Source of the DNA: a virus
Strand: one strand, 5' to 3'
Virus record (IMG/VR): IMGVR_UViG_3300012979_000178
DNA: 25,123 nt
In this document: positions 10,818-24,906 of the stretch, one piece after another
Position numbering within the stretch: position 1 is the first letter of the stretch
Layout: each line of letters opens with the position of its first letter
Program-made: the position numbers and the translations under genes
Notes under the pieces: generated by a model
The model's database searches: none
What the model was told of the DNA's origin: nothing
The model's input: the letters and a program-made list of their open reading frames with translations, nothing else

Positions 10818-12248
10818 ATGTCAACTCATTGTGGATATGTGGTAAATATTAAAGAATTAAGACCTCACTCTAATGCAGATAAACTTCAAATAGCAACTTT
10901 TTTTGGTAATGATACTTGTGTGGGACTTGATGTAAAATTAGATGATATTGGAATTTATTTTCCCTCTGATTTACAACTTTCTGTAGAATTTTGCGAACAG
11001 CATAATCTTGTTCGCCGTAAGGATGACAGCGGTAACAACGTTGGTGGATATCTTGATCCCGACAAAAGAAACATTCGCACTATAAAACTTCGTGGTGAGA
11101 AGAGTGATGGTCTATTTATGCCTCTTCAGTGCCTCGCTTATACTGGCATTAATCTTGATGACCTTAATATTGGAGATCGTATTGATATTGTAAATGGGCA
11201 TGAAATTTGTAAGAAATATATCCCTCGCTCCAATAGACGTAAAGGTTCTTATTCCGAGGGCAATAAGACTCGTAAACATAAAGTTCCTGTTGCTCCGCTC
11301 TTTGCGGAACACGCAGATACAGAACAACTTGCTTATAATCTTAATGCCTTTAAAGCGGGCGACCAAATTGAAATTACTTTAAAAATGCACGGTACTAGCC
11401 ATCGTGTTGGCTATCTTGAAACCCTTCAGGGATATAAAAGAACATTTGCGGATAAAATTTTCCGGCGTGAAGGTACTCCAGAATATAATTGGGGTTATGT
11501 TGCTGGAACTCGTAGAACTGTTCTCGAAGATTATAATGGCGGTTATTATGGCAGCAACGAGTTTAGAGAAGTACATACTAAATTTTTCAATGGCAAACTT
11601 TGGAAGGGTGAAACTGTATATATGGAAATTGTAGGTTTCACTAATGATGGTACTCCTATTATGTCCAATTGCGAAAACAAAAAATTAAATGATAAAGATT
11701 TTATTAAGCAGTATGGAGATATTACCGTCTTCTCTTATGGTTGCGATCCTGCTGGATATACAGAACTTCCTATGAAAGATACTGGATTGCCTTATGGCGC
11801 AGTAGTTTCTGTTCCAAAATCAGAAATTTACGTATATCGTATGACTATGACTAATGAAGATGGTAATATAGTAGAATACACCCCTGACTTTATGAGATAT
11901 CGTTGCGAACAGATGGGCGTTAAAACTGTCCCTGTTCTTTGGAAAGGTTTTATTCCTTATACTATAGATGATGTTGAATCTGCCATTCCCGGTCATAGAA
12001 TTATACTTAAAGAAGGAGAAAGTGCCGGAGAATGGATTAAAAATGTTGCCGAGCAATATTACGATGGTCCAGATCCGGTTGGTAAGACTCATACTCGAGA
12101 AGGCGTTGTAGTAAGAATTATAAATCGTCCTAAATTCTGTGCTTATAAGCACAAAAATCATTCATTTAAGATGGTTTCTGGAATTATTACTGAGGCCGTT
12201 GCGGATAGCAATATTGAAATTAGCGAAGATATTTTAGCAGAACTTTAA
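10818..12248 (+). CDS. RNA ligase (Rnl2-type nucleotidyltransferase motif KMHGTS) fused to an N-terminal EMAP/Myf-type tRNA-binding OB fold
   Basis: The N-terminal VVNIKELRPHSNADKLQIATF matches the tRNA-binding-domain signature (HPNADKL). Motif I is K-x-H-G-T-S, as in T4 Rnl2 (KIHGTN). There is a GC jump at about 10985. Confidence 0.75.
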   Translation: MSTHCGYVVNIKELRPHSNADKLQIATFFGNDTCVGLDVKLDDIGIYFPSDLQLSVEFCEQHNLVRRKDDSGNNVGGYLDPDKRNIRTIKLRGEKSDGLFMPLQCLAYTGINLDDLNIGDRIDIVNGHEICKKYIPRSNRRKGSYSEGNKTRKHKVPVAPLFAEHADTEQLAYNLNAFKAGDQIEITLKMHGTSHRVGYLETLQGYKRTFADKIFRREGTPEYNWGYVAGTRRTVLEDYNGGYYGSNEFREVHTKFFNGKLWKGETVYMEIVGFTNDGTPIMSNCENKKLNDKDFIKQYGDITVFSYGCDPAGYTELPMKDTGLPYGAVVSVPKSEIYVYRMTMTNEDGNIVEYTPDFMRYRCEQMGVKTVPVLWKGFIPYTIDDVESAIPGHRIILKEGESAGEWIKNVAEQYYDGPDPVGKTHTREGVVVRIINRPKFCAYKHKNHSFKMVSGIITEAVADSNIEISEDILAEL

Positions 12249-12335: not shown

Positions 12336-13187
12336 ATGCCATTTAAAGATAGAACTAATATAAAATATGGAAAATTAACTGCAAAAGAATATTTAGGTAA
12401 AAGTATGTGGAAATGCATTTGTGATTGTGGTCAAGAAAAAATCGTGTATGGAGGCCACTTGGAAAGTGGTCATACTTAGTCATGTGGTTGTATTCGTCCT
12501 CCAAGAACTAAATTATATGGACAAAAATTTGGTAGATTAACAGTATTAAACTGGGAAGGAAACGGCAAGTGGCGTTGTCAATGCGAATGCGGAAATGAAG
12601 TATTGGTTCAAACCGATAATTTAAAATCTGGCAATACCAAATCTTGTGGCTGCTTACAAAAAGACAAAGCAAGTGACGCATCATTCATTTCTCTTGTTGG
12701 TAATCGTTATGGAAAACTTTTAGTAATTGAACGAGTAGAAAATAATCGTTTTGGACATGTATGCTATCGCTGTAAGTGCGATTGTGGTGGTGAAACTATT
12801 GTTGATGCTACAAACCTACGTAATGGCAATACCAATTCCTGTGGTTGTATTAAATCCAAAGGAGAAATGATTATCAACAACTGGTTACTAGAACATAATT
12901 TCGATTTCCGCAGTCAATATTCTTTTGACGATTGTATTTTATCTACCGGCCGCAGACCTTTTTTCGACTTCGTTTTATTCAAGAATGATAAACCATATCT
13001 TGTGATAGAATATAACGGCCGCCAACATTACGAAGTAACCGGCGGATGGAACACAGAAGAGCAGTTTGCTAAAACACAACGCCGTGATAGCGAAAAACTA
13101 CAATGGTGTGAAGATAATCACTATCCAATATTGATAATAAAATATGATGAAGATATTGAAAAAATATTGGAGGAAAGATTATTATGA
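12336..13187 (+). CDS. paralogue of 10077..10811: triple zinc-ribbon plus DUF559/Vsr-like endonuclease; one in-frame TAG at 12477
   Basis: RBS GAAAGGATTTATATT and ATG at 12336. It is in frame with track ORF 12603..13187 and shares the repeat pattern W.C.C.CG...N(T/S)(K/N)SCGC. The C-terminus reads FFDFVLF...LVIEYNGRQH...RRDSEK. Confidence 0.6.
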
Positions 13188-13198
13188 GGAATTCCTAA

Positions 13199-13485
13199 TG
13201 AAATGTAATCGTTGCATAAATAAAAATACTGAATATTGCGAAACTTGTATTGACCATCCCAAATGGGCAAATAGACCTAAACAATCTAATTTTCAATTAT
13301 ATAAACCCACTTGTCCATTTGGATATAAAGATTGTATTAATGACCCCGCATATATTCTATGGAGTGATCCAGAATGGTATAAAGAATTATATAATACTTT
13401 ATCCCCAGAAGAAGCCGCAAAAGAAGAAGATGGAAGTTGCGGCTTATGCGATATGGGAAGTGATTATGATGATGAAGACAAATAA
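13199..13485 (+). CDS. Cys-rich small protein with an acidic C-terminus
   Basis: An ATG follows the previous TGA, preceded by a weak GAGG. There are CxxC clusters and a DYDDEDK tail. Confidence 0.45.
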
Positions 13486-13618: not shown

Positions 13619-13620
13619 GA

Positions 13621-13652
13621 AAAAGCGGGATATTCCCGCTTTTTTGTTTTTT
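13621..13652 (+). terminator. rho-independent terminator
   Basis: Stem AGCGGGA / TCCCGCT with a TAT loop, followed by a T-run. Confidence 0.8.
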
Positions 13653-13675
13653 ATAAATATTTATGGTATAATAAA
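13644..13675 (+). promoter_or_regulatory. conserved promoter copy 6 (-35 TTGTTT, extended -10 TGGTATAAT)
   Basis: Motif match upstream of pncA. Confidence 0.65.
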
Positions 13676-13695: not shown

Positions 13696-14253
13696 ATGAA
13701 GATTGTAATTGTTGTTGATTTACAAAATGATTTTATTACAGGCTCTCTTGGTTCCACCGAAGCGCAGGCTATTATTCCAAATGTAAAAGACCATCTGCGG
13801 TCATTAGATGAAAAAGATCATGTAATTTTTACCATGGATACTCATTTTGATGACTATCTTGAAAGCGGTACTTTGGAAAGCGAAAAGCTTCCCATTAAGC
13901 ATACCATTAAAGGAACTGATGGTTGGCTAATTTTTGAAGATTTAACCTCTTTGCCTCCGGGACCGCAGACATTGGCACCAAAGCAGACTTTTTGCTCTTG
14001 GGATTTTGATAGTGTTATTGTAGACGAAGTTTGTAATTATCTTAAAAATAATGAAAATCTTGAAAAAGATCTAGAATTTGAAATTTTTGGAGTTTGTACT
14101 GATATTTGCGTTGTTTCTATCGCCCTTTATCTAAGATCTTTTTATCCTAGTGTTAAAATCACTTGCCTTAAAGATCTTTGCGCGGGCTCTTCTCCTGCGG
14201 CACATGAAGCTGCTTTGACTGTTATGAAATCTTGTATGATTGATATTACGTAA
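13696..14253 (+). CDS. pncA: nicotinamidase (PncA), isochorismatase family
   Basis: N-terminal VVDLQNDF, a conserved Lys region (IKHTIKGTDGW) and GVCTDICV carrying the catalytic Cys. Confidence 0.75.
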   Translation: MKIVIVVDLQNDFITGSLGSTEAQAIIPNVKDHLRSLDEKDHVIFTMDTHFDDYLESGTLESEKLPIKHTIKGTDGWLIFEDLTSLPPGPQTLAPKQTFCSWDFDSVIVDEVCNYLKNNENLEKDLEFEIFGVCTDICVVSIALYLRSFYPSVKITCLKDLCAGSSPAAHEAALTVMKSCMIDIT

Positions 14254-14267
14254 ACGGAGGAATGATT

Positions 14268-15176
14268 ATGCCAGTACATGACGATCTTGGAACTCGCATG
14301 AAAGAGTTCTATGAACAAGTCCCACGTTTTCGATTAACTAGAAGAATGCCCGTGGTAATTAGACTCGACGGGAAATCCTTCCACACCTTTACACGCGGTT
14401 TTGAAAAGCCATTTGATGAAGTGCTTGGTAGAGCGATGCGAGAGACTATGAAATATCTTTGTGAGAATATTCAGGATTGCGTCCTTGGATATACTCAATC
14501 CGATGAAATTACTTTAATTCTTGTTGACTATAAAGAATTAAATAGTTCTGCTTGGTTTAATTATGAAATTCAAAAAATGTGTTCTATTTCTGCTTCTATG
14601 GCAACTATGGTATTTAATAAATTTTTTGAAAAAGAAGTTAATAAATGGACAAACCAAGCTTTTCCAACTGATTATTTAGGATATAATACTGGGAAAATTT
14701 CAGTTGCTGATATTGAACTAAAAGGTACTTATATAAAATCTCTCAATAAAGGCGCAATGTTTGATTCTCGTTGTTTTAACATTCCAAAAGAAGAAGTAGC
14801 CAATTTGATCTATTGGCGACAACTAGATGCTACGCGTAATTCTATTCAAATGGTAGGTCAAGCTAATTTCTCTCATAAAGAACTTCAAAATAAATCTTGT
14901 AATGATATTCAAAATATGCTTTTTGAAAAGAAAAATATTAATTGGAATGATTTCCCAACTCACTTAAAACGTGGCTCTTGTTGCGTTAAAATAGAGACTT
15001 CTACTGTTTTTGCTATCGAGCATGAAGACGGTACTGTTGAAACTGGTGCCGTTGAGCGACCTCATTGGGAAATTGATCTGGAAATTCCGATCTTCAAAAA
15101 TGAAGGACGAGAATATATTAATCGTCGTATTCTTTATAAAGAAAAGCCTGAAACAACTATTGCTTATATTAATTAA
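14268..15176 (+). CDS. Thg1-like protein (TLP), a 3'-5' nucleotidyltransferase acting in tRNA 5'-end repair or addition
   Basis: VVIRLDGKSFHTF...KPFD...DCVLGYTQSDEITL matches the Thg1 core (VVRLDGRNFHRF...AYGQSDEYSF). The start was chosen at 14268 because its spacing to GGAGG is better than for the ATG at 14262. Confidence 0.75.
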   Translation: MPVHDDLGTRMKEFYEQVPRFRLTRRMPVVIRLDGKSFHTFTRGFEKPFDEVLGRAMRETMKYLCENIQDCVLGYTQSDEITLILVDYKELNSSAWFNYEIQKMCSISASMATMVFNKFFEKEVNKWTNQAFPTDYLGYNTGKISVADIELKGTYIKSLNKGAMFDSRCFNIPKEEVANLIYWRQLDATRNSIQMVGQANFSHKELQNKSCNDIQNMLFEKKNINWNDFPTHLKRGSCCVKIETSTVFAIEHEDGTVETGAVERPHWEIDLEIPIFKNEGREYINRRILYKEKPETTIAYIN

Positions 15177-15180
15177 AAAT

Positions 15181-15219
15181 AAAATCCTCTTATATTTTAA
15201 GAGGATTTTTGTTTTTTAT
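15181..15219 (+). terminator. rho-independent terminator
   Basis: A 12-bp stem AAAATCCTCTTA / TAAGAGGATTTT followed by a T-run. Confidence 0.8.
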
Positions 15220-15244
15220 AAAAAAATATGATATAATATATATA
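15209..15244 (+). promoter_or_regulatory. conserved promoter copy 7; near-identical to copy 3
   Basis: Sequence TTGTTTTTTATAAAAAAATATGATATAATATATATAGAAAA. Confidence 0.7.
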
Positions 15245-15271
15245 GAAAATAAAAAAAAGGAATTTATAAAA

Positions 15272-15433
15272 ATGAATCTTGATGATACAATTAAAAGAAT
15301 AAAAAGCGATGTTGCCGAGATTAGTTCTAAAATGATGACTGGAAAAACTATTGAAGAACAAGTTAAAGAAATTGTACTAAAAGATAGTGGTAAAAAAGTA
15401 AAAAATTCTATTATAGGTAAAAATATAAAATGA
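15272..15433 (+). CDS. small 53-aa hypothetical protein
   Basis: RBS AAAAGGAATTTATAAAA and ATG at 15272, which is in frame within track ORF 15209..15433. Its TGA overlaps the next start. Confidence 0.4.
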   Translation: MNLDDTIKRIKSDVAEISSKMMTGKTIEEQVKEIVLKDSGKKVKNSIIGKNIK

Positions 15434-15960
15434 ATAATTTTCAAAAATTTTTTGGTCACTTACACACAGTAAATAAACATCGCTTTATAGTTTGTAAACT
15501 ATGCTTTAAATGCGGTTTATATTGGCAAGGACTTACCCATGATCTTTCTAAATATTCGCCAGTAGAATTTATCAATGGTGTAAAATTTTATACTGGAAAA
15601 GCCTCTCCTCATCTTGGTGAACGAAAAGCATATGGATATAGCAAGGCTTGGTTAAATCACAAAGGACGCAATAAGCACCATGGAGAATATTGGCAAGATA
15701 TTGGATCAGATGGATTTACTCATCCCATTGATATGCCAAAAAATTATCTTATTGAAATGATTTGTGATAGAGTCGCGGCTTCAATGATTTATCTTGGAGA
15801 AAATTATACAGATAAAGCACCTTTGGAATATTATCAAAGCCATAAAGATGAAAATCAATTTAGTGATTATACAAGATTTTATTTAGAAGAATATTTAACA
15901 AATATCGCTAATTATGGTTTTGATGCTGCTATGAAGAGTAAAACTACATATAAATGCTAA
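15430..15960 (+). CDS. small HD-domain-like phosphohydrolase
   Basis: H...H (GHLHTVNKH), then THDLSK about 28 aa later, then HHGEYWQD...D. This fits HD motifs I-V. Confidence 0.55.
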   Translation: MNNFQKFFGHLHTVNKHRFIVCKLCFKCGLYWQGLTHDLSKYSPVEFINGVKFYTGKASPHLGERKAYGYSKAWLNHKGRNKHHGEYWQDIGSDGFTHPIDMPKNYLIEMICDRVAASMIYLGENYTDKAPLEYYQSHKDENQFSDYTRFYLEEYLTNIANYGFDAAMKSKTTYKC

Positions 15961-15987
15961 CTATTAAATAAGCTAGGAGAAAATTAA

Positions 15988-16440
15988 ATGAAACTTGAAA
16001 TTGATCTTGATCTTAATAAAATTGACTATGATTCTATTAATAAATAGATAAAACAAAAAATTGAAGATTTAGATATTGCTAATGTTTATACTATTGATGA
16101 TAGAATTAAAAATGAATTAAATGCTCAGATTAGCCAAGTAATTAATGAAAATATGTATCGAAATTATTGGTCTAATACATTAGATAATAAAACCGAAGGA
16201 CATATTCAAGACGAGCTAAGAATTCTCATTAAAGAAGCAATAACCCCATCAGTGAATAATGTTTTTAATAAAATTTCAGAAGAAGAAATAGAAAAAATGA
16301 TTTTACATATTCTTCCGAAAGCATTAGTTATGCTACTGATAGATAATCTTAAAGGTTCACTTTATTCTTTACAAAATGACCAAACCTACTTAATGGAATC
16401 AGTTATAGAAAATCATATAAACCGTAGATTAAATAGATAA
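15988..16440 (+). CDS. hypothetical protein with one in-frame TAG at 16045
   Basis: Strong RBS AGGAGAAAATTAA and ATG at 15988. It is in frame with track ORF 16153..16440. Confidence 0.5.
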
Positions 16441-16454
16441 GGAAATTAATAATT

Positions 16455-17690
16455 ATGATGAAACTTTCTCCTATTATTACTCATCTTACCGATACTGACC
16501 TTTATAAATTTACTATGTTACAGACTATGTTTCATAGACATACAAATCTTAATGGCACTTATCTTTTTAAATGCCGAAACGCAGGAGTTAAATTTACCAA
16601 AGAAATGATGGATGAGATCAATGCGCAGATTGATCATCTTTGTACTTTGCGCTTTACAGATGAAGAACTTGATTATCTTGGCTCTTTACGCTTTATTAAG
16701 CCTGATTTTATTGAATTTCTTCGCATTTGGCATCCTTTGCGCAGATATGTAAATTGTTATATTTATGATCATCCGGGATGTCCAGATGAAGGAGAACTTT
16801 TTGTCGAAGTTCATGGTCCACTCTTTAACACTATGATGTTTGAAATTTATCTTCTTGCTATTGTAAATGAAGTATATTTTCGTATGAAGTATAATTATCT
16901 TGACCTCATTAATGGCGCGAGAGAAAAACTTTACCACAAACTTAGCGGATTTAATCATTTTGATGAAGAAGGCAATAAAGCCCCTCTCTATACTTTTAAA
17001 TTTGCGGAATTTGGTACCAGAAGAAGATTAAGTCGTGAATGGCAGGATTATGTAATGAAAGAACTTATTGCTACTGGATATTGCGCCGGTACCTCTAACG
17101 TATATCTTGCTATGAAATATGGTATCAAAGCAATTGGTACTTATGCGCATGAATATGTTCAGATGTTTCAGGGTATTCCCGGCATTCAGCTTGCTTATAC
17201 CAACAAAGCCGCTCTTGAAGAATGGTTTGAAGAATATCAGGGCGACCTTGGAACTGCATTGACTGATACTCTTGGCACTGATATTTTTCTTCGTGATTTT
17301 AATAAACTTCAAGCTATGTGTTATACCGGAGTACGTCATGATAGTGGAGATCCTTATGAATGGGGCGAAAAGATTATCGAACACTATCTTAAACTCGGCA
17401 TCGACCCCAAAACCAAAACTCTTCTTTTTAGTGATAGTCTCGATTTTGAAAAAGCACAGGCAATTTATGACCATTTTAATGGGCGTATTAATGTAAGTTT
17501 TGGTATTGGTACTTATCTTACTAATGACACAGGAGTAAATCCCCTCAATATCGTTATTAAACTTCAGTATGTAAATGATCATCCAGTAGCAAAATTAAGC
17601 GACGTAGAAGGCAAAACTATGTGCCAAGATGAAAATTATGCTAATTACTTGGCACGCGCAGTTAATTATAGATTAGAAGAAGGTATTTAA
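16455..17690 (+). CDS. pncB: nicotinate phosphoribosyltransferase (PncB)
   Basis: It tracks E. coli PncB closely: TDLYKFTM, FGTRRRLSREWQ, GTSNVYLA, GTYAHE, RHDSGDP.EWGEK, GIDPKTK.LLFSD, FGIGT.LT, PLNIVIKL, PVAKLSD. Confidence 0.9.
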   Translation: MMKLSPIITHLTDTDLYKFTMLQTMFHRHTNLNGTYLFKCRNAGVKFTKEMMDEINAQIDHLCTLRFTDEELDYLGSLRFIKPDFIEFLRIWHPLRRYVNCYIYDHPGCPDEGELFVEVHGPLFNTMMFEIYLLAIVNEVYFRMKYNYLDLINGAREKLYHKLSGFNHFDEEGNKAPLYTFKFAEFGTRRRLSREWQDYVMKELIATGYCAGTSNVYLAMKYGIKAIGTYAHEYVQMFQGIPGIQLAYTNKAALEEWFEEYQGDLGTALTDTLGTDIFLRDFNKLQAMCYTGVRHDSGDPYEWGEKIIEHYLKLGIDPKTKTLLFSDSLDFEKAQAIYDHFNGRINVSFGIGTYLTNDTGVNPLNIVIKLQYVNDHPVAKLSDVEGKTMCQDENYANYLARAVNYRLEEGI

Positions 17691-17691
17691 T

Positions 17692-18204
17692 ATGAATTTC
17701 ATTTTTCGAGGATTCGAAATAAATCCAAAAGGCAAGGAAAAAATTTATATCAACAATAAAGAACTTCTAGGTGATTGGCACGAAGGATATTTTACTCGAT
17801 ATGCGAGAACTGCTGTCGTAGGAGTCCCTGTAATTGAAACAGAATGGGATAGTTATGTTATTGATGAACGAACCATTTGTCCTTGCCTTTCTTATATTGA
17901 TTCTAAAGGAAAACATTTTGGTCATATGGACATAATCACTTGTATTGACGCAAATGATGAAATTGATAAATTTTTACTTCAATGGAATAGTGAGGGACAA
18001 GAATTCCAAGTTATTTTCTTAAATTGCCAAGAAAAATTATATGGAACTAATACAAGCTATTTTATTAGTTTTGATTTTTTTGATTGGGCTGAATTTGTAG
18101 CAAACGTTCTTCAAAATATCCACGGAATTTATAAATCTATTGAAATAACTAATAATGCTTTTTCTGATCCTAATTTTTTTAAAAAAGGAATTATTCCGTG
18201 GTAA
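17692..18204 (+). CDS. hypothetical protein translationally coupled between pncB and nadM
   Basis: Its ATG lies 1 nt after the pncB TAA. I recognised no motif. Confidence 0.6.
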   Translation: MNFIFRGFEINPKGKEKIYINNKELLGDWHEGYFTRYARTAVVGVPVIETEWDSYVIDERTICPCLSYIDSKGKHFGHMDIITCIDANDEIDKFLLQWNSEGQEFQVIFLNCQEKLYGTNTSYFISFDFFDWAEFVANVLQNIHGIYKSIEITNNAFSDPNFFKKGIIPW

Positions 18205-18236
18205 TAATAAATTAAAAATCAAATGAGGTATAATAA

Positions 18237-18800
18237 ATGTTTGGAGCAATTTTGTTTAGGGCACAGCCCTTTCACAATGGACATTTGCATATGATTAAAA
18301 CTGCTTATGCCGATTGTAAAAAATTTGGTATAGATTTATATATTTTTATTGGTAGCGCAGATAAATATGGTACTAAAAGAAATCCTTTACCTATTGAGCT
18401 AAGAAGAAATTTAGTAATTAATTCTTTAAATGAATATTTTTCTGAAGAAGAATTAAATCATATTTATGTATTTACTCTTGATGATCTTAGCGATGAAGCA
18501 AATAACACTTACGCTTGGGGAGATTATTTATATATTAAAATGTGTTCTAAAGCTAATGATCCAGAATTTATTTTTTACTATAGTGATAAACCTTCTATTG
18601 TGTTAAGTTGGTTTGCTCCAGATTTATGTAAAAATATAATGTATAAATTTTTACCGCGTTATCATACAATTAATGCTACTGCAATAAGAGAAGCTATTAT
18701 TGATAATGAATTTTGTCCTAATTGGTTGGAATATGATATACCAGAAACGGTAATAGCAGAATACAATACTATCAGAGAATATTTATTGGAGGCTATTTAA
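18237..18800 (+). CDS. nadM: NadM-type nicotinamide/nicotinate mononucleotide adenylyltransferase (cytidylyltransferase fold, HxGH)
   Basis: FRAQPFHNGHLHMIK and IFIGSADK...NPLP match archaeal NadM (GRFQPFHKGHL; IGIGSAQ). Confidence 0.75.
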   Translation: MFGAILFRAQPFHNGHLHMIKTAYADCKKFGIDLYIFIGSADKYGTKRNPLPIELRRNLVINSLNEYFSEEELNHIYVFTLDDLSDEANNTYAWGDYLYIKMCSKANDPEFIFYYSDKPSIVLSWFAPDLCKNIMYKFLPRYHTINATAIREAIIDNEFCPNWLEYDIPETVIAEYNTIREYLLEAI

Positions 18801-19531
18801 TGAAAGATTTAGTGCAAGATATAATTAAATGGATTAAAGAATATTTTGAAATGTCCCCTCCTAATACAAAAGCAGTAATTGGGATTTCCGGAGGCAAAGA
18901 TTCAACCATTGCTACTGCGCTTTTGGTTGAAGCCTTAGGTAAAGATAGAGTAATTGGAGTACGAATGCCCCAGGGTGTTCAATCTGATATTGATATGGCT
19001 AGAGAAGTATGTGATTATTTTGGTATTGAATCTTATGAAATCAATATTGGAAATATTTGTGAAACTTTATATCAGACTATTGGAGAAAATTATAAAGAAA
19101 ATCCAGTAGTTTCTACTAATACTCCAGCAAGAATACGTATGACTATTCTATATGCTATTGCTGGAATGTATAATGGTAGAGTTGTTAATACTTCAAATGC
19201 TTCTGAAATTTTTATAGGTTATTCAACTAAAAATGGCGATGGCGCAGGAGATTTTAGTATTACACGCGATTTTACTGTAAGAGAATTAAAAAAAATCGGT
19301 TATTATCTTGGACTTCCTAAAAAATTTATTGACAAAATTCCCGAAGATGGAATGAGTGGTAAGACTGATGAAGAAAAATTAGGTTTTTCATATGAGGTAA
19401 TAGATGATATTTTGATGTATAATGAATTTCCTGATGAAGCTCTTACCCAAAAGATTACTAATTTATACACCAAAAATTTACATAAAATTTCTCCAATGCC
19501 ATATTATTATAATAAGGGGTATTTAGAATGA
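18800..19531 (+). CDS. nadE: NH3-dependent NAD+ synthetase (NadE)
   Basis: PP-loop GISGGKDS; overall NadE-like. The start overlaps the nadM stop. Confidence 0.85.
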   Translation: MKDLVQDIIKWIKEYFEMSPPNTKAVIGISGGKDSTIATALLVEALGKDRVIGVRMPQGVQSDIDMAREVCDYFGIESYEINIGNICETLYQTIGENYKENPVVSTNTPARIRMTILYAIAGMYNGRVVNTSNASEIFIGYSTKNGDGAGDFSITRDFTVRELKKIGYYLGLPKKFIDKIPEDGMSGKTDEEKLGFSYEVIDDILMYNEFPDEALTQKITNLYTKNLHKISPMPYYYNKGYLE

Positions 19532-19977
19532 TTAATAAATTTGAAGGAGATTATGAATTTTTAAGTAATTTTTTCTTTTCTCCTTTTTCTTTTAAAGGAA
19601 TTGAATATCCAACTAATGAACATTTCTTTCAAGCTATGAAAACTGTTGATCGAAATCTTCAAAAAGCAATTGCTCAGGCGCCAACCCCGGGTAAAGCTAA
19701 AAGATTAGGACGTCAAGTAAATTTAATACCGGATTGGGAAACTATTAAAGACGCCGTAATGTATCAAGGACTAAAATTAAAATTTTCTGATCCAATTCTT
19801 AAAGAAAAACTTTTAGCAACAGGAAATGAAAAATTAGAAGAAGGAAATTGGTGGCATGATAATTTTTGGGGTAATTGCTACTGCCCAAAGTGTAAAAACA
19901 TTGAAGGGGTAAATAAACTTGGCAAATTACTTATGCTTCTTAGAAAGGAGCTAAAAAATGAACAAAGCAACACGTAA
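19528..19977 (+). CDS. NADAR (YbiA-like) domain protein
   Basis: F.G.Y.FLSNF..S.F...G..Y.T.EH.FQA.K...AK..GR...W, which is the NADAR pattern. ATGA overlap with nadE. Confidence 0.75.
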   Translation: MINKFEGDYEFLSNFFFSPFSFKGIEYPTNEHFFQAMKTVDRNLQKAIAQAPTPGKAKRLGRQVNLIPDWETIKDAVMYQGLKLKFSDPILKEKLLATGNEKLEEGNWWHDNFWGNCYCPKCKNIEGVNKLGKLLMLLRKELKNEQSNT

Positions 19978-20235: not shown

Positions 20236-20270
20236 GTAAAAAGCTCTAATTGATTAGAGCTTTTTTGATT
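20236..20270 (+). terminator. rho-independent terminator
   Basis: Stem AAAAAGCTCTAAT / ATTAGAGCTTTTT. Confidence 0.8.
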
Positions 20271-20585: not shown

Positions 20586-21275
20586 ATGGCTGTATATGCT
20601 TTATCTGACTTACATGGTAATAAAGAATTATTTAAAAAGGTTAAATCTTTTTTAAATGAAAAAGATACAGTATATTTTCTTGGGGATGCTGCTGATAGAG
20701 GTCCTGATGGTTGGGAACTTATTAAAACAATTTATGAAGACTCTCAATTTATTTACGCTAAAGGCAACCACGAAGATATGCTTGTAAATTCTATTAAAGA
20801 ATTCTGTGAAATGAATTCCAAAAGTGGAGATTGTGATTTACTTTTTTACAACGGCGGTAAACAGACCTTTAATGCTTGGCGTAAAGATGGGGCAAAGAAG
20901 AGTTGGGCTACCAAGCTTGAAAAATTACCGGCTTGGCTTGCTTATATTAATACTAAAGGTCAGCTTATCAGTATGAGTCATGCTGGTTTTACTCCAAAAC
21001 CCAACGAATTTCCTTCTCATAGTGATTTAATGTGGAGTAGAGATCACTTTCTTGATGATTGGGATGAAGAGGTAAAAAATTGTATTATTGTTCATGGACA
21101 TACTCCTATTCTTTTTCTTGCAGAAGATTTAAAAATCAAAGAAGAAGAACTTGAGCTTAAACCGTTATGGTATTGTAATAACAAAAAGGTTTGTATTGAT
21201 TTGGGCGCGCATATGACTAATGCCACAACTCTTTTAAATCTTGATACATTTGAATATTATTTGTTTCAAGTCTAA
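20586..21275 (+). CDS. lambda-PPase-family metallophosphoesterase (Ser/Thr phosphatase or polynucleotide 2',3'-phosphatase type)
   Basis: Motifs SDLHGN, GDAADRG, GNHE, W.RD and HGHT are present. The architecture resembles lambda PPase and the CthPnkp phosphatase domain. Confidence 0.8.
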   Translation: MAVYALSDLHGNKELFKKVKSFLNEKDTVYFLGDAADRGPDGWELIKTIYEDSQFIYAKGNHEDMLVNSIKEFCEMNSKSGDCDLLFYNGGKQTFNAWRKDGAKKSWATKLEKLPAWLAYINTKGQLISMSHAGFTPKPNEFPSHSDLMWSRDHFLDDWDEEVKNCIIVHGHTPILFLAEDLKIKEEELELKPLWYCNNKKVCIDLGAHMTNATTLLNLDTFEYYLFQV

Positions 21276-21342: not shown

Positions 21343-21816
21343 ATGAAAAAAATTTATTTACTTTGTGGTATTCCCGGTTCAGGAAAAAGCACTTGGGCAA
21401 AAAGCCAACTTGATAATAAATCTGTCTGGATTTCAAGAGATCAGATAAGATTCTCTATGGTTTCAGAGTCAGAAGAATATTTCTCTAAAGAAAAAGAAGT
21501 ATTTCGAGAATTTATTAAAGAAATTAATTTAGCAATTAGAAATAAAAATTTTGATAATATTTATATAGATGCAACACATCTTAACACTATAAGTAGATAT
21601 AAAGTTTTGGATAAAATTGCTTTAAAAGATGTTGATGAACTTAATATTATTTTCTTTAATACCCCTTTGAATATTTGTCTCGAAAGAAACTCTTATCGTT
21701 TTGGAAGAGAAAAAGTACCAGAAGAAGTAATTAAAAAAATGTATAAAACTGTTGTTCCTCCTCATCTTGATGATAAATATTTATATAATAATATTATAGT
21801 AAAAGGAGATGAATAA
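21343..21816 (+). CDS. pnk: polynucleotide 5'-kinase, a P-loop domain of the T4 Pnk kinase type
   Basis: LLCGIPGSGKST (Walker A), RD (catalytic Asp region), and a C-terminus with LERNSYRFGREKVPEEVIKKMYK that resembles T4 Pnk ([22 protein letters not shown]). Confidence 0.8.
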   Translation: MKKIYLLCGIPGSGKSTWAKSQLDNKSVWISRDQIRFSMVSESEEYFSKEKEVFREFIKEINLAIRNKNFDNIYIDATHLNTISRYKVLDKIALKDVDELNIIFFNTPLNICLERNSYRFGREKVPEEVIKKMYKTVVPPHLDDKYLYNNIIVKGDE

Positions 21817-22863: not shown

Positions 22864-23429
22864 ATGGCAATCTGGATTACTTCAGATTGGCATTAGTTTA
22901 TTTTTGCCATGACAGAGAATTTATCTGGGGTCCAAGGCATTTTAATTCTGTTGAAGAAATGAATGAAACTATTGTAGATAGACATAATTCTTTGGTTCTT
23001 CCAGAAGATGATGTATATGTATTGGGCGATTTGATGCTTAATGATAATGAAAAAGGTATTGAATTAATTAAGCGTATGAATGGTAAACTTCATATTGCTA
23101 TTGGAAACCATGACACAGCACCAAGAATTGAATTGTATAAAACTTTACCGAATTTAGTAGATATTAATTACGTTCACACATTTAAATATAGAAAATATAA
23201 TTTCTATTGTTCTCATTATCCTACATTAACAGGAAATCTTGAAGCTGAATCGCTTCATCAAGTAGCAATTAATCTATATGGACATACTCATCAGTCGAGT
23301 AAATTCTATGAAGATAGACCATATATGTTTCATTGTGGTATGGATTCAAATGCTTGTTATCCTGTAAATATTGATTACATTATTGATAAGTGTAAAAATA
23401 AAGTGGCTGAATGCATTGAAATGCTTTAA
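22864..23429 (+). CDS. calcineurin-like metallophosphoesterase with a frame disruption after codon 10. It is a possible pseudogene, sequencing indel or recoding site.
   Basis: RBS AGAGAGG and ATG at 22864 give MAIWITSDWH (motif I D-x-H), then a TAG. The remaining motifs (GDLML, GNHD, GHTH) are in the -1 frame, which is track ORF 22887..23429. Confidence 0.55.
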
Positions 23430-23466: not shown

Positions 23467-24906
23467 ATGTATCTTTATCTTATTCCAATTGCCGTTATTG
23501 CTGTTATTGTTCTCTTTTGCCTCGGTTATGTAAAGGCTCCTCCGGATCAGGCTTATGTAATTTCCGGGATGATGAAGAAACCTCGTATTCTAATTGGACG
23601 AGCAGGTTTTAAAGTTCCTTTCTTTGAACGTCTTGACAAACTTGCTCTTGGTGCTATTCAGATTGATGTAAAGACTGCTAGTTCGGTTCCCACTGCTGAA
23701 TATATCAATGTAAGAGTTGATTCTAATGTAAATGTAAAAATTGGTCAGGCTCCTGAAATGCTTGAACTTGCTTGTCAGAATTTTCTTAATGTAAAGAGAG
23801 ATGTTATCAATCAGAAGATCAGAGATTTGCTCGAAGGTAATATCCGTGAAATCGTTGGTAGCATGAAGCTTACTGAAATGGTAAGTGATAGAAAGGCTTT
23901 TTCTGAAAAGGTACAGGAAAACGCAGTACCCGATCTTGCGAGATTTGGTCTTGAGCTTATTTCTTTTAATGTTCAGAATTTTGTAGATGATAATGGTGTA
24001 ATTGATAATCTTGGTATTGATAATGTAGAGCAGATTCGCAAGAAGGCTGCTATTGCTAAGTCTGATGCCCAGAGAGAAATTGCAATTGCTGAAGCTGAAA
24101 ATACTAAAATTGCAAATGATGCTCGTGTAAAGGCGGCTGAAGAAATTGCTGCCCGAGACAATGATCTTGAAATTAAGCAGGCGGCTCTTAAGCAGGCAGC
24201 TGATACTGAAAAGGCTCGTGCAGCAGCTGCTATGGCAATCGAATCTGAAAATCAGAATAAACTTAAAAATATTGCAGCTACGGATGCTGAAATTGCAAAG
24301 GCTGAACGCGAAGCCGATCTGAAGCAGAAAGAAATCGAACTGAAAGAATATGAACTTGACGCTCTTGTCCGCAAGCAGGCAGACGCAGATAAATATGCAG
24401 TAGAGCAGAAGGCAGCCGCAGAACTTGCTGTTCGTCAGAGAAAAGCAGAAGCTGAAAAGTTTGAACGTGAACAGCGTGCAGAAGCTGAAAAGTTTGCAGC
24501 AATTCAGGAAGCAGAAGCAGAAAAAGCAAAGGCTGATGCCGCTAAATATGCCGCACTTGCAGAAGCAGAAGGTATTGCCGCTGTAAAGAAAGCTGAAGCA
24601 GAAGGTATTCGTGCTACTGGTATTGCAGAAGCAGAAGGTATTGAAAAGAAGGCAGAAGCCCAGAAGAAGATGGGTGAAGCTTCCGTTCTTGAAATGTACT
24701 TCCAGATGCTTCCGAACGCTGTAGCAAGTGCTGCCGCACCTCTTGAAAATGTTGGAAACATTACAATGTATGGCGACGGCAATCAATCTAAGCTCGTCGG
24801 CGACGTAATGAAGACTGTAAATCAGGTTACCGAAGGTATGAAAGCTAACGGTATTGATATCGCGTCACTTATTGCTGGCGCACTCTCCAAGAAAGACAGT
24901 AAGTAA
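23467..24906 (+). CDS. floT: flotillin (FloT/YuaG-type SPFH/band-7 protein): N-terminal TM segment, SPFH domain, and an E/A-rich coiled coil
   Basis: RBS AAGGAG. It is collinear with B. subtilis FloT: LEGNIREIVGSMKLTEM...FSEKVQ...DLARFGLELISF; KQADADKYAVEQKAAAE; MLPNAVASAAAPLENVGNIT. Confidence 0.85.
   Translation: MYLYLIPIAVIAVIVLFCLGYVKAPPDQAYVISGMMKKPRILIGRAGFKVPFFERLDKLALGAIQIDVKTASSVPTAEYINVRVDSNVNVKIGQAPEMLELACQNFLNVKRDVINQKIRDLLEGNIREIVGSMKLTEMVSDRKAFSEKVQENAVPDLARFGLELISFNVQNFVDDNGVIDNLGIDNVEQIRKKAAIAKSDAQREIAIAEAENTKIANDARVKAAEEIAARDNDLEIKQAALKQAADTEKARAAAAMAIESENQNKLKNIAATDAEIAKAEREADLKQKEIELKEYELDALVRKQADADKYAVEQKAAAELAVRQRKAEAEKFEREQRAEAEKFAAIQEAEAEKAKADAAKYAALAEAEGIAAVKKAEAEGIRATGIAEAEGIEKKAEAQKKMGEASVLEMYFQMLPNAVASAAAPLENVGNITMYGDGNQSKLVGDVMKTVNQVTEGMKANGIDIASLIAGALSKKDSK

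Follow-up and report, generated by a model that had tools for sequence, protein, structure and literature searches.

To our knowledge, enzymes of the Thg1 family are the only known 3'-5' polymerases. Besides 3'-5' addition, the family is defined by a homotetrameric form (dimer of dimers), and its bacterial/archaeal repair type by templated repair of 5'-truncated tRNAs without action on intact tRNA. Here we describe a phage-encoded member of this family, a Thg1-like protein (TLP), whose gene lies at positions 14268-15176 of IMG/VR virus record IMGVR_UViG_3300012979_000178; the whole stretch of 25,123 nucleotides (nt) is called the window below. Its closest solved relative, BtTLP (Bacillus thuringiensis; PDB 4KGK/4KGM; PMC3701042), is a chromosomally encoded enzyme of 245 amino acids (aa), and the archaeal MaTLP (Methanosarcina acetivorans; PDB 5AXK-5AXN; PMC4820378) has been solved with tRNA. 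The eukaryotic Thg1 enzymes (human 3OTB, yeast 5XOX, Candida 3WBZ) have the same palm-like fold, three carboxylates and two-step chemistry, but they are tRNA-His-specific enzymes that add G-1 and carry a HINNLYN motif, whereas the phage TLP groups with the repair-type TLPs. In phages, Thg1 was noted in Bc431v3 in 2013 (PMC3601020), and Iyer et al. (2021) regarded phage (jumbo-phage) Thg1 as an RNA-repair component, beside counter-restriction based on nicotinamide adenine dinucleotide (NAD+; PMC7824862). The annotated phage enzymes of PHROG 4717 (Bc431v3 gp143, phage G gp378, Fusobacterium phage Fnu1, Serratia phage BF) are of the same family and have the same predicted RNA-repair role (PMC3601020, PMC7824862), but they are of BtTLP-like length, lack the insertion described below, and none is reported beside pncA.

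The carrier of the gene is a large uncultured gut phage, and its TLP is intact and of the bacterial type. We put at roughly 60% the probability that it is an active repair-type TLP that rebuilds tRNA 5' nucleotides by templated 3'-5' addition, within an island for RNA repair and NAD+ replenishment. Like BtTLP, it has all catalytic, activation-site and transfer-site residues. The features of the gene are:

14268-15176, plus strand: TLP open reading frame, 302 aa, predicted 3'-5' nucleotidyltransferase
14256-14260, plus strand: Shine-Dalgarno sequence GGAGG, 7 nt before the TLP ATG at 14268
14361-14507, plus strand: catalytic core motifs R32-L-D34-G, H39, T42, K47-P-F-D50 and S78-D79-E80 (R28/D30/H35/T38/K43/D46/S74/D75/E76 in the BtTLP alignment)
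14361-14372, plus strand: RLDG, residues 32-35
Residues 38-41 of TLP: FHTF
14406-14417, plus strand: KPFD, residues 47-50
14499-14507, plus strand: SDE, residues 78-80
14622-14753, plus strand: clade-specific helical-hairpin insertion, residues ~119-162, about 40 aa
14976-15077, plus strand: long beta-arm of two strands, residues 237-270, with the conserved R264-P-H-W267 at its end

The TLP belongs to the Thg1/TLP superfamily. A sequence-only reading had named it so from the core motifs RLDG..FH.F, KPFD and SDE; these are present, and the matches to Pfam, PHROG and BtTLP are far beyond chance. Pfam PF04446 (Thg1) scores 108.1 bits (cutoff 29.2; E 3.8e-31; profile positions 3-130 of 130). The Thg1C profile of the C-terminal domain reaches 22.9 bits, under its cutoff of 26.3, with the entire C-terminal half still aligning with BtTLP. 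PHROG 4717 ('tRNA-His guanylyltransferase') matches in two stretches with an insertion between them (E 1.1e-88, 298 bits). Among solved structures, BtTLP is the best match at 38% identity (single-sequence E 8.6e-59, family-profile E 3.5e-99), far ahead of the archaeal TLP and, last, of eukaryotic Thg1, where the family profile gives E values of 7e-24 to 6e-20 against the Candida, yeast and human enzymes. An AlphaFold (AF2) monomer model built from 120 sequences (down to 39% identity) has a predicted local distance difference test score (pLDDT) of 95.6 and a predicted template-modelling score (pTM) of 0.89; an alignment of 34 close homologues gave a pLDDT of 54 and an unusable model. The model has the polymerase-palm-like fold of the solved Thg1/TLP structures. 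All 32 Foldseek matches in the PDB at E <= 0.001 are Thg1 or TLP, led by 4kgm with a template-modelling (TM) score of 0.94 (target-normalised). Cas10 and cyclases appear only at E > 0.02; a better match to another palm-domain family, which the sequence-only reading had allowed for, did not emerge.

The reading frame has an alternative in-frame ATG at 14262 on the plus strand. We prefer the start at 14268, as did the sequence-only reading, because it lies 7 nt from the GGAGG, as against 1 nt only for the ATG at 14262, and because the N-terminus of close homologues, MPV(H/N)D, fits it. Residue numbers below refer to the 302-aa product; residue roles were taken from the BtTLP paper (PMC3701042) and mapped via sequence alignment to BtTLP as follows:

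D34, D79, E80 (BtTLP D30, D75, E76): carboxylates
R32, K103, R168 (BtTLP R28, K99, R131): triphosphate of the incoming nucleotide, transfer site
E16 (BtTLP E12): salt bridges with R28 and R131, transfer site
K47, S78 (BtTLP K43, S74): activation step
H39, T42, D50, L53, M195 (BtTLP H35, T38, D46, L49, M158): contacts to the activating nucleotide, with T42, L53 and M195 as the base-stacking residues
R184 (BtTLP R147): conserved in BtTLP, where its role was not fully investigated

The Thg1 family has three conserved carboxylates, two of which are metal ligands (hTHG1 D29/D76/E77; BtTLP D30/D75/E76; PMC3701042). The sequence-only reading had made its assignment depend on them, and they are in place as D34/D79/E80, invariant among the 34 close homologues and with a conservation of 90% or more among 120 diverse ones. 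All mapped active-site residues are invariant or nearly so among the close homologues, as are those of the core motifs among the 120 diverse sequences (down to 39% identity), where full invariance is confined to R32, K103 and F165. Codon analysis of 1101 gene pairs gives a ratio of nonsynonymous to synonymous substitution rates (dN/dS) of 0.05 for the core, which is under very strong purifying selection within the phage clade.

The HINNLYN motif of eukaryotic Thg1 becomes SKNSISM in BtTLP and TRNSIQM in the phage TLP, which shares with BtTLP an xKNSIxM-type motif and the bacterial-specific Met158 (M195 in the phage protein; Asn in eukaryotes). Since the protein lacks HINNLYN and shares only 17-22% identity with eukaryotic Thg1 structures, the database label 'tRNA-His guanylyltransferase' should not be read as a function; judged by its sequence, the TLP is of the bacterial/archaeal repair-type subtype and not of the eukaryotic tRNA-His type. 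MaTLP has the same fold (Foldseek E ~1e-15) but only ~24% identity and no helical insertion. In its tRNA complex, R136/N137 hold the 5'-terminal nucleotide of the tRNA, the beta-hairpin R198-R215 binds the tRNA elbow, and F174/N179/R188 provide an alternative, anticodon-dependent binding mode (PMC4820378). The first pair aligns with R190/N191 of the phage TLP, invariant in the 34 close homologues, and the hairpin, with its conserved R215, aligns with the beta-arm and its nearly invariant R264. F174/N179/R188 align with F219/N225/K234, of which N225 is invariant and K234 nearly so in the same set. By sequence, the protein is thus a repair-type TLP that may retain the tRNA-His mode as well.

Two arms set the phage protein apart from BtTLP: the ~40-aa helical hairpin is missing from BtTLP, whose beta-hairpin is also much shorter. 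Segment ~119-162 is missing from solved structures (a 20-column gap in BtTLP, 15 columns in eukaryotic Thg1) and is modelled as an extended helix (101-131) and a return helix (146-161) with pLDDT 94-98. The TLPs of isolated phages are ~233-248 aa long and, judged from match lengths, also lack it. The beta-arm strands span 237-251 and 257-270 in the model; with two strands of 14-15 residues, the arm is longer than that of MaTLP, and it is acidic. Net charge was used to look for a basic, RNA-binding character of the arms, and none was found (median charge 0 in the helical arm, -3 in the beta-arm).

Both arms evolve fast. Among 119 homologues of at least 69% overall identity, median identity is 91% and 92% in the flanking cores and 31% in the helical arm, and 60% single linkage yields 32 helical-arm types on one core type. 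In 2245 of 7021 pairs the flanks are at least 93% identical, yet the arms are at most 40% identical. The reverse pattern, alike arms on diverged cores, is seen in 14 pairs, and near-identical helical arms (at least 85%) sit on N-terminal cores 58-80% identical in P0010, P0084 and P0081 versus P0001, and in others. This indicates that TLP genes are mosaic through intragenic recombination. In the codon analysis, the helical arm has a dN/dS of 0.83-0.88 and the beta-arm one of 0.81, and 31% arm identity is about the neutral expectation at the observed core dS of ~0.5; the pattern agrees with near-neutral change and recombination. Whether the arms are under positive selection was also considered; this is not demonstrated, as dN/dS is ~0.8-0.9 and alignment in such regions is unreliable. 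A diversity-generating retroelement was considered and set aside as the source of the variation; length changes are many, and no reverse transcriptase is among the Pfam matches of the window.

The sequence-only reading also placed the TLP in one transcript with a nicotinamidase gene, and the arrangement in silico supports this:

13619-13645, plus strand: intrinsic terminator closing the upstream unit (RNase T ... RNA ligase ... HNH), a 12-bp G+C-rich stem and a T run
13644-13672, plus strand: promoter-like site for pncA-TLP, comprising TTGTTT, a 17-nt spacer, TG and a perfect TATAAT (13667-13672)
13696-14253, plus strand: pncA, first gene of the unit, encoding a 185-aa nicotinamidase-type hydrolase of the isochorismatase family
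15181-15209, plus strand: intrinsic terminator closing the pncA-TLP unit, a 12-bp stem and a T run

The upstream terminator has a predicted free energy of -17.1 kcal/mol (z -4.4; 0 of 200 shuffles as stable) and was found by a second, independent scan; the downstream one has -16.0 kcal/mol (z -5.4; again 0 of 200). Because strong terminators flank the two genes and the 14-nt gap between them forms no hairpin (z +1.05), pncA and TLP are predicted to share a single transcript, apart from the remaining NAD genes, which run to the next terminator at ~20241-20262. The promoter-like site is a consensus match only, in an A+T-rich region where such sites are no commoner than in shuffled sequence. Upstream, as had been claimed, PncA is an isochorismatase-family protein (Pfam Isochorismatase 60.5 bits, cutoff 27). 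Residues D8/K96/C138 and D48/H50/H69, which we take to be the nicotinamidase triad and metal site, are intact and invariant across eight phage homologues. The NCBIfam equivalog for PncA gave no match, and from the residues we infer that the substrate specificity is that of a nicotinamidase.

This unit sits in a longer array in which all genes are on the plus strand: a major vault protein (MVP) homologue, a gp5.9-like protein, an RNase T-like exonuclease, RNA ligase, HNH, pncA and TLP, followed by DUF5662, PncB, NMNAT-like, NadE, NADAR, a metallophosphoesterase, a kinase, a phosphoesterase and an SPFH/flotillin-like protein. The genes for RNA repair and NAD+ synthesis, with DUF5662, are:

10818-12248, plus strand: ATP-dependent RNA ligase with N-terminal OB fold (DRB0094/PHA02142 type; PHROG 968, E 5e-65)
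15430-15960, plus strand: DUF5662 (Pfam 125.6 bits; H...HD-like motifs)
16455-17690, plus strand: PncB, passes TIGR01514 (434 vs 270)
18237-18800, plus strand: NMNAT-like, below cutoff
18800-19531, plus strand: NadE, passes TIGR00552 (176 vs 64)
19528-19977, plus strand: NADAR, passes TIGR02464 (88 vs 74)
20586-21275, plus strand: metallophosphoesterase (Pfam Metallophos), RNA end-healing candidate
21343-21816, plus strand: Pnk-like P-loop kinase (Pfam AAA_33), RNA end-healing candidate
22887-23429, plus strand: second phosphoesterase, RNA end-healing candidate

From 13696 to 19977 the window thus encodes NAD+ synthesis from nicotinamide by a complete Preiss-Handler route (PncA, PncB, NMNAT-like, NadE), plus NADAR. 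The TLP gene, with its terminator, divides this cluster into two transcription units. Preiss-Handler clusters of the same type (pncA, pncB, NMNAT-like, nadE) have been described in gut 'NAD-jumbo phages' (PMC11662467); here they occur in phages of ~120-180 kb. NARP1 and NARP2 (bioRxiv 10.1101/2024.02.11.579819) and NARP3 (PMC13464706) use Adps/Namat, Nampt/Nmnat and PnuC/NadR, and the route in the window matches none of the three. A Thg1-like gene inside the NAD cluster goes unmentioned in the papers on NAD-jumbo phages and NARPs (PMC11662467, 10.1101/2024.02.11.579819, PMC13464706).

Both the RNA ligase and the Pnk-like kinase that the sequence-only reading had seen alongside the TLP are present. 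The ligase has a PHA02142 OB domain, reaches 26.9 bits with Pfam RNA_ligase (cutoff 27), matches TIGR02306 weakly and has no match in a PDB sequence search, and the top PDB matches of the kinase are T4 Pnk 1ly1 (E 4.5e-9) and then bacterial Pnkp kinase domains. With its T4-Pnk-like kinase, metallophosphoesterases and RNA ligase, the window shares with T4 Pnkp and Rnl1, and with the healing and sealing by bacterial Pnkp/Hen1, the logic of mending tRNA damage, inflicted in the phage case by the host. Those systems reseal breaks in the anticodon loop, whereas the TLP would rebuild 5'-terminal nucleotides, a different lesion and a different chemistry. A search for tRNA genes and Rfam families in the window found none, and a local tie to a tRNA substrate could not be made.

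Several other genes of the array were observed in passing. The homologue of the eukaryotic MVP (3231-5780, plus strand; 849 aa; PDB 4hl8 E 5.8e-17 over residues 464-812; Pfam MVP_shoulder 74 bits) has its own terminator at ~5785-5816 and is kept in related phage loci L001, L009, L063/L064, L163, L165, L167, L206 and L213; gut-phage MVPs (phages ct2Ri15 and ctOa11) were published in a 2023 preprint (bioRxiv 10.1101/2023.11.10.566534). A small protein at 6188-6505 (plus strand) has a T7 gp5.9-like RecBCD-inhibitor domain (Pfam 32.9 bits, cutoff 24.5), which supports the view of the region as an anti-defence island. The HNH/homing-endonuclease-like reading frame at 12603-13187 (plus strand; TTG start; PHROG 559 E 3e-31) overlaps the one at 13144-13485; the differing positions of its relatives in related islands suggest a mobile element. 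The SPFH/flotillin-like protein (23467-24906, plus strand; 479 aa) has relatives of ~61% identity at the same downstream end of the island in L001, L069, L074 and L163-L165. DUF5662, for which no PDB sequence relative was found, recurs beside PncA or other NAD genes in several phage lineages (L057, L073, L108, L116, L123, L163, L164) and may belong to the phage NAD module as a part not recognised so far.

ENA and Logan assemblies each contain the same contig. Whole-window megablast against sequenced phages found no close DNA relative, with only the thg1 genes matching (65-71%). In close relatives (contigs of 124-181 kb) the TLP sits between pncA and a phosphoribosyltransferase gene, the order being pncA-TLP-pncB... 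in L163, pncA-x-TLP-DUF5662...pncB in L164 and pncA-Prs-like-YqeY-TLP...NAMPT in L165. In the last of these, a Prs/Adps-like phosphoribosyltransferase and a YqeY (GatB-like, tRNA-associated) protein lie between pncA and TLP (L165:6675-7987), and NAMPT in place of PncB downstream makes a hybrid of NAD routes. The L166 TLP, 72% identical, has an unrelated setting and no NAD genes nearby. A Gad2 anti-Gabija homologue and cREC_REC proteins were seen near TLP in related phages (L163:5719-6021, L166:12594-12941, L166:13144-13869); for cREC_REC domains, Iyer et al. (2021; PMC7824862) predicted a role in processing cyclic ADP-ribose or cyclic phosphate.

We took a census of 80 TLP-anchored and 80 PncA-anchored IMG/VR loci within a 10-kb radius; the PncA-anchored loci were found with an alignment query, a single-sequence query having returned none. 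TLP has PncA within this distance in 10 loci, NadE in 10, the kinase in eight and the ligase in seven; PncA has TLP in eight and NadE in 58. TLP lies directly upstream of pncA-pncB in L023, L025 and L049. TLP and pncA thus pair up repeatedly, in several arrangements, yet the pairing is not general, and a shared accessory or counter-defence region explains it as well as functional coupling does. A conserved partner gene of TLP was sought by clustering the neighbours in the 80 viral loci and rejected, as only small, variable families appeared. No tRNA-His gene was found within 10 kb of TLP in 60 related loci. In two related phage loci, L014 (5164-5234) and L048 (3809-3879), tRNA-Ile(tat) and tRNA-Gln(ttg) flank a 71-nt ARAGORN prediction, 'tRNA-???', whose anticodon has just two bases (tg); it may be an unusual or degenerate tRNA.

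Relatives of the TLP in reference genomes (at most 58% identity in isolates) are nearly all from gut Clostridia, which suggests that these are the host range. The cellular copies have the same architecture as the phage TLP, and those in Lachnospiraceae are surrounded by phage-like genes, restriction genes and genes for RNA repair, among them a ligase of the same type, a P-loop kinase, a phosphoesterase, Tpt1 and PARG. Related phage loci, too, repeatedly have genes for RNA ligase, kinase and phosphoesterase close to TLP. Ten long homologues were searched for domain fusions, of which one was informative and the others had no second Pfam domain. This one, P0133 (452 aa, metagenomic), joins TLP to a C-terminal NUDIX domain (Pfam 39.8 bits) and hints at a link of TLP to 5'-end pyrophosphate or NAD-cap chemistry.

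The family as a whole is large, with 5696 clusters at 50% identity (E <= 0.001) and more than 8000 homologues in 90% clusters. Among GenBank phage records, 156 of 50,697 (0.3%) encode a TLP, mostly in large phages and all below 60% identity to the phage TLP here; Bacillus (46), Prevotella (15), Caulobacter (13) and Mycobacterium (11) are among them. At least 563 viral metagenome (IMG/VR) contigs have a TLP relative. The sequence-only reading called this capability rarely seen in phages, which holds for isolates but not for large uncultured gut phages. Nearly all of 40 GenBank records listed are already labelled tRNA-His guanylyltransferase, and phage TLPs and their predicted RNA-repair role were previously known; the family is not new in kind. 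Only two elements are new, the variable arms of this clade and the nesting of the TLP within the NAD module in the close lineage.

By analogy with BtTLP and MaTLP, the phage TLP would bind a tRNA short of one or more 5' nucleotides, activate its 5'-monophosphate with ATP or GTP, and add the lost nucleotides in the 3'-5' direction by two-metal catalysis, with the 3' strand of the acceptor stem as template. The outcome would be a complete acceptor stem again. The enzyme would be made from the two-gene unit with the nicotinamidase, in an accessory island that also encodes the ligase, kinase, phosphoesterases, Preiss-Handler enzymes and NADAR. Given this setting, the TLP is most likely one arm of a counter-defence toolkit that would keep the translation apparatus and the NAD+ pool usable during infection of gut Clostridia. 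What the analysis shows is that the protein belongs to the family, has the fold and an intact active site, is under purifying selection and lies in the operon described; its enzymatic activity, tRNA as substrate, tRNA repair, the counter-defence role and any functional tie to NAD salvage we infer from homology and the neighbouring genes. Several points weigh against this reading. Our analysis identified no bacterial defence that shortens tRNA 5' ends, so the damage is hypothetical, and the physiological role of the bacterial TLPs themselves is unsettled (PMC3701042). A literature search for an activity, substrate or phenotype of any phage TLP gave annotations only. NAD or RNA-repair genes lie within 10 kb of TLP in only ~10-12 of the 80 TLP-anchored viral loci, the immediate neighbours of TLP being otherwise variable small open reading frames. 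The arms, one acidic and the other neutral, do not resemble a classical RNA-binding surface.

The same enzyme could instead serve in tRNA-His maturation, adding G-1 to phage or host tRNA-His that lacks it and thereby securing histidylation, rather than in general repair. BtTLP and MaTLP are able to add G-1 to tRNA-His, MaTLP having its second, anticodon-dependent mode (PMC3701042, PMC4820378), the residues of which have their counterparts in F219/N225/K234. Moreover, tRNA genes are common in phages of comparable size, and several lie near TLP in related loci. The lack of any tRNA gene in the window, of tRNA-His within 10 kb of TLP in the 60 related loci and of the HINNLYN motif argues the other way, and we regard this explanation as unlikely. 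Bacterial tRNA-His normally has a genome-encoded G-1, so there is also no obvious need for such an activity. A still less probable idea is that a TLP was picked up as a passenger from Lachnospiraceae hosts or their mobile elements and performs its cellular job, with no infection-specific role. Its nearest cellular relatives, of the same architecture, are indeed in gut Clostridia and its genomic position differs among phages, but the core is under very strong purifying selection in the phage clade, the gene is kept in hundreds of viral contigs with, here, a good Shine-Dalgarno sequence and its own promoter/terminator frame, and the 'cellular' copies themselves lie amid phage-like, restriction and RNA-repair genes.

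RNA 5'-end work tied to NAD or ADP-ribose chemistry, for instance rebuilding after removal of an NAD-derived adduct or after damage by an NAD-consuming defence, would account for a TLP nested in an NAD module and co-transcribed with pncA in a terminator-bounded unit. It could draw on the position of TLP between pncA and a phosphoribosyltransferase gene in the window, L163, L164 and L165, on the adjacency of the two genes in opposite order in distant lineages (L023/L025/L049, L110/L113, L123), on the genes for Tpt1 (NAD-dependent), PARG and NADAR near TLP in bacterial genomes, and on the one TLP-NUDIX fusion. However, synteny in the close lineage is inherited and is not independent evidence, the association is not general in either direction of the census, L166 lacks nearby NAD genes, phage G has both genes ~140 kb apart, and TLP and pncA may merely share an accessory, counter-defence region. 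We also know of no Thg1-family chemistry that involves NAD, and we give this explanation little credence. The same holds for its extended form, in which the TLP would be functionally coupled to the enclosing NAD/ADP-ribose module (e.g. 5'-end rebuilding after NAD-dependent damage) and the two fast-evolving arms would be an arms-race interface for specificity or evasion and not loops free of constraint; this we hold to be improbable. The reading that we prefer remains the repair of tRNA 5' ends.

For now, the phage TLP counts as a well-supported annotation within a known kind and not as a discovery. Its 32 arm types on one core form a tractable natural variant set. A constrained core within an RNA-repair/NAD+ island is circumstantial evidence that 5'-end damage to RNA (tRNA or other) puts real pressure on phages infecting gut Clostridia. 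The repertoire of phage RNA repair known so far consists of anticodon-loop healing and sealing, CCA repair and tRNA replacement. If the enzyme does counter a defence system, 5'-end rebuilding would join this repertoire.

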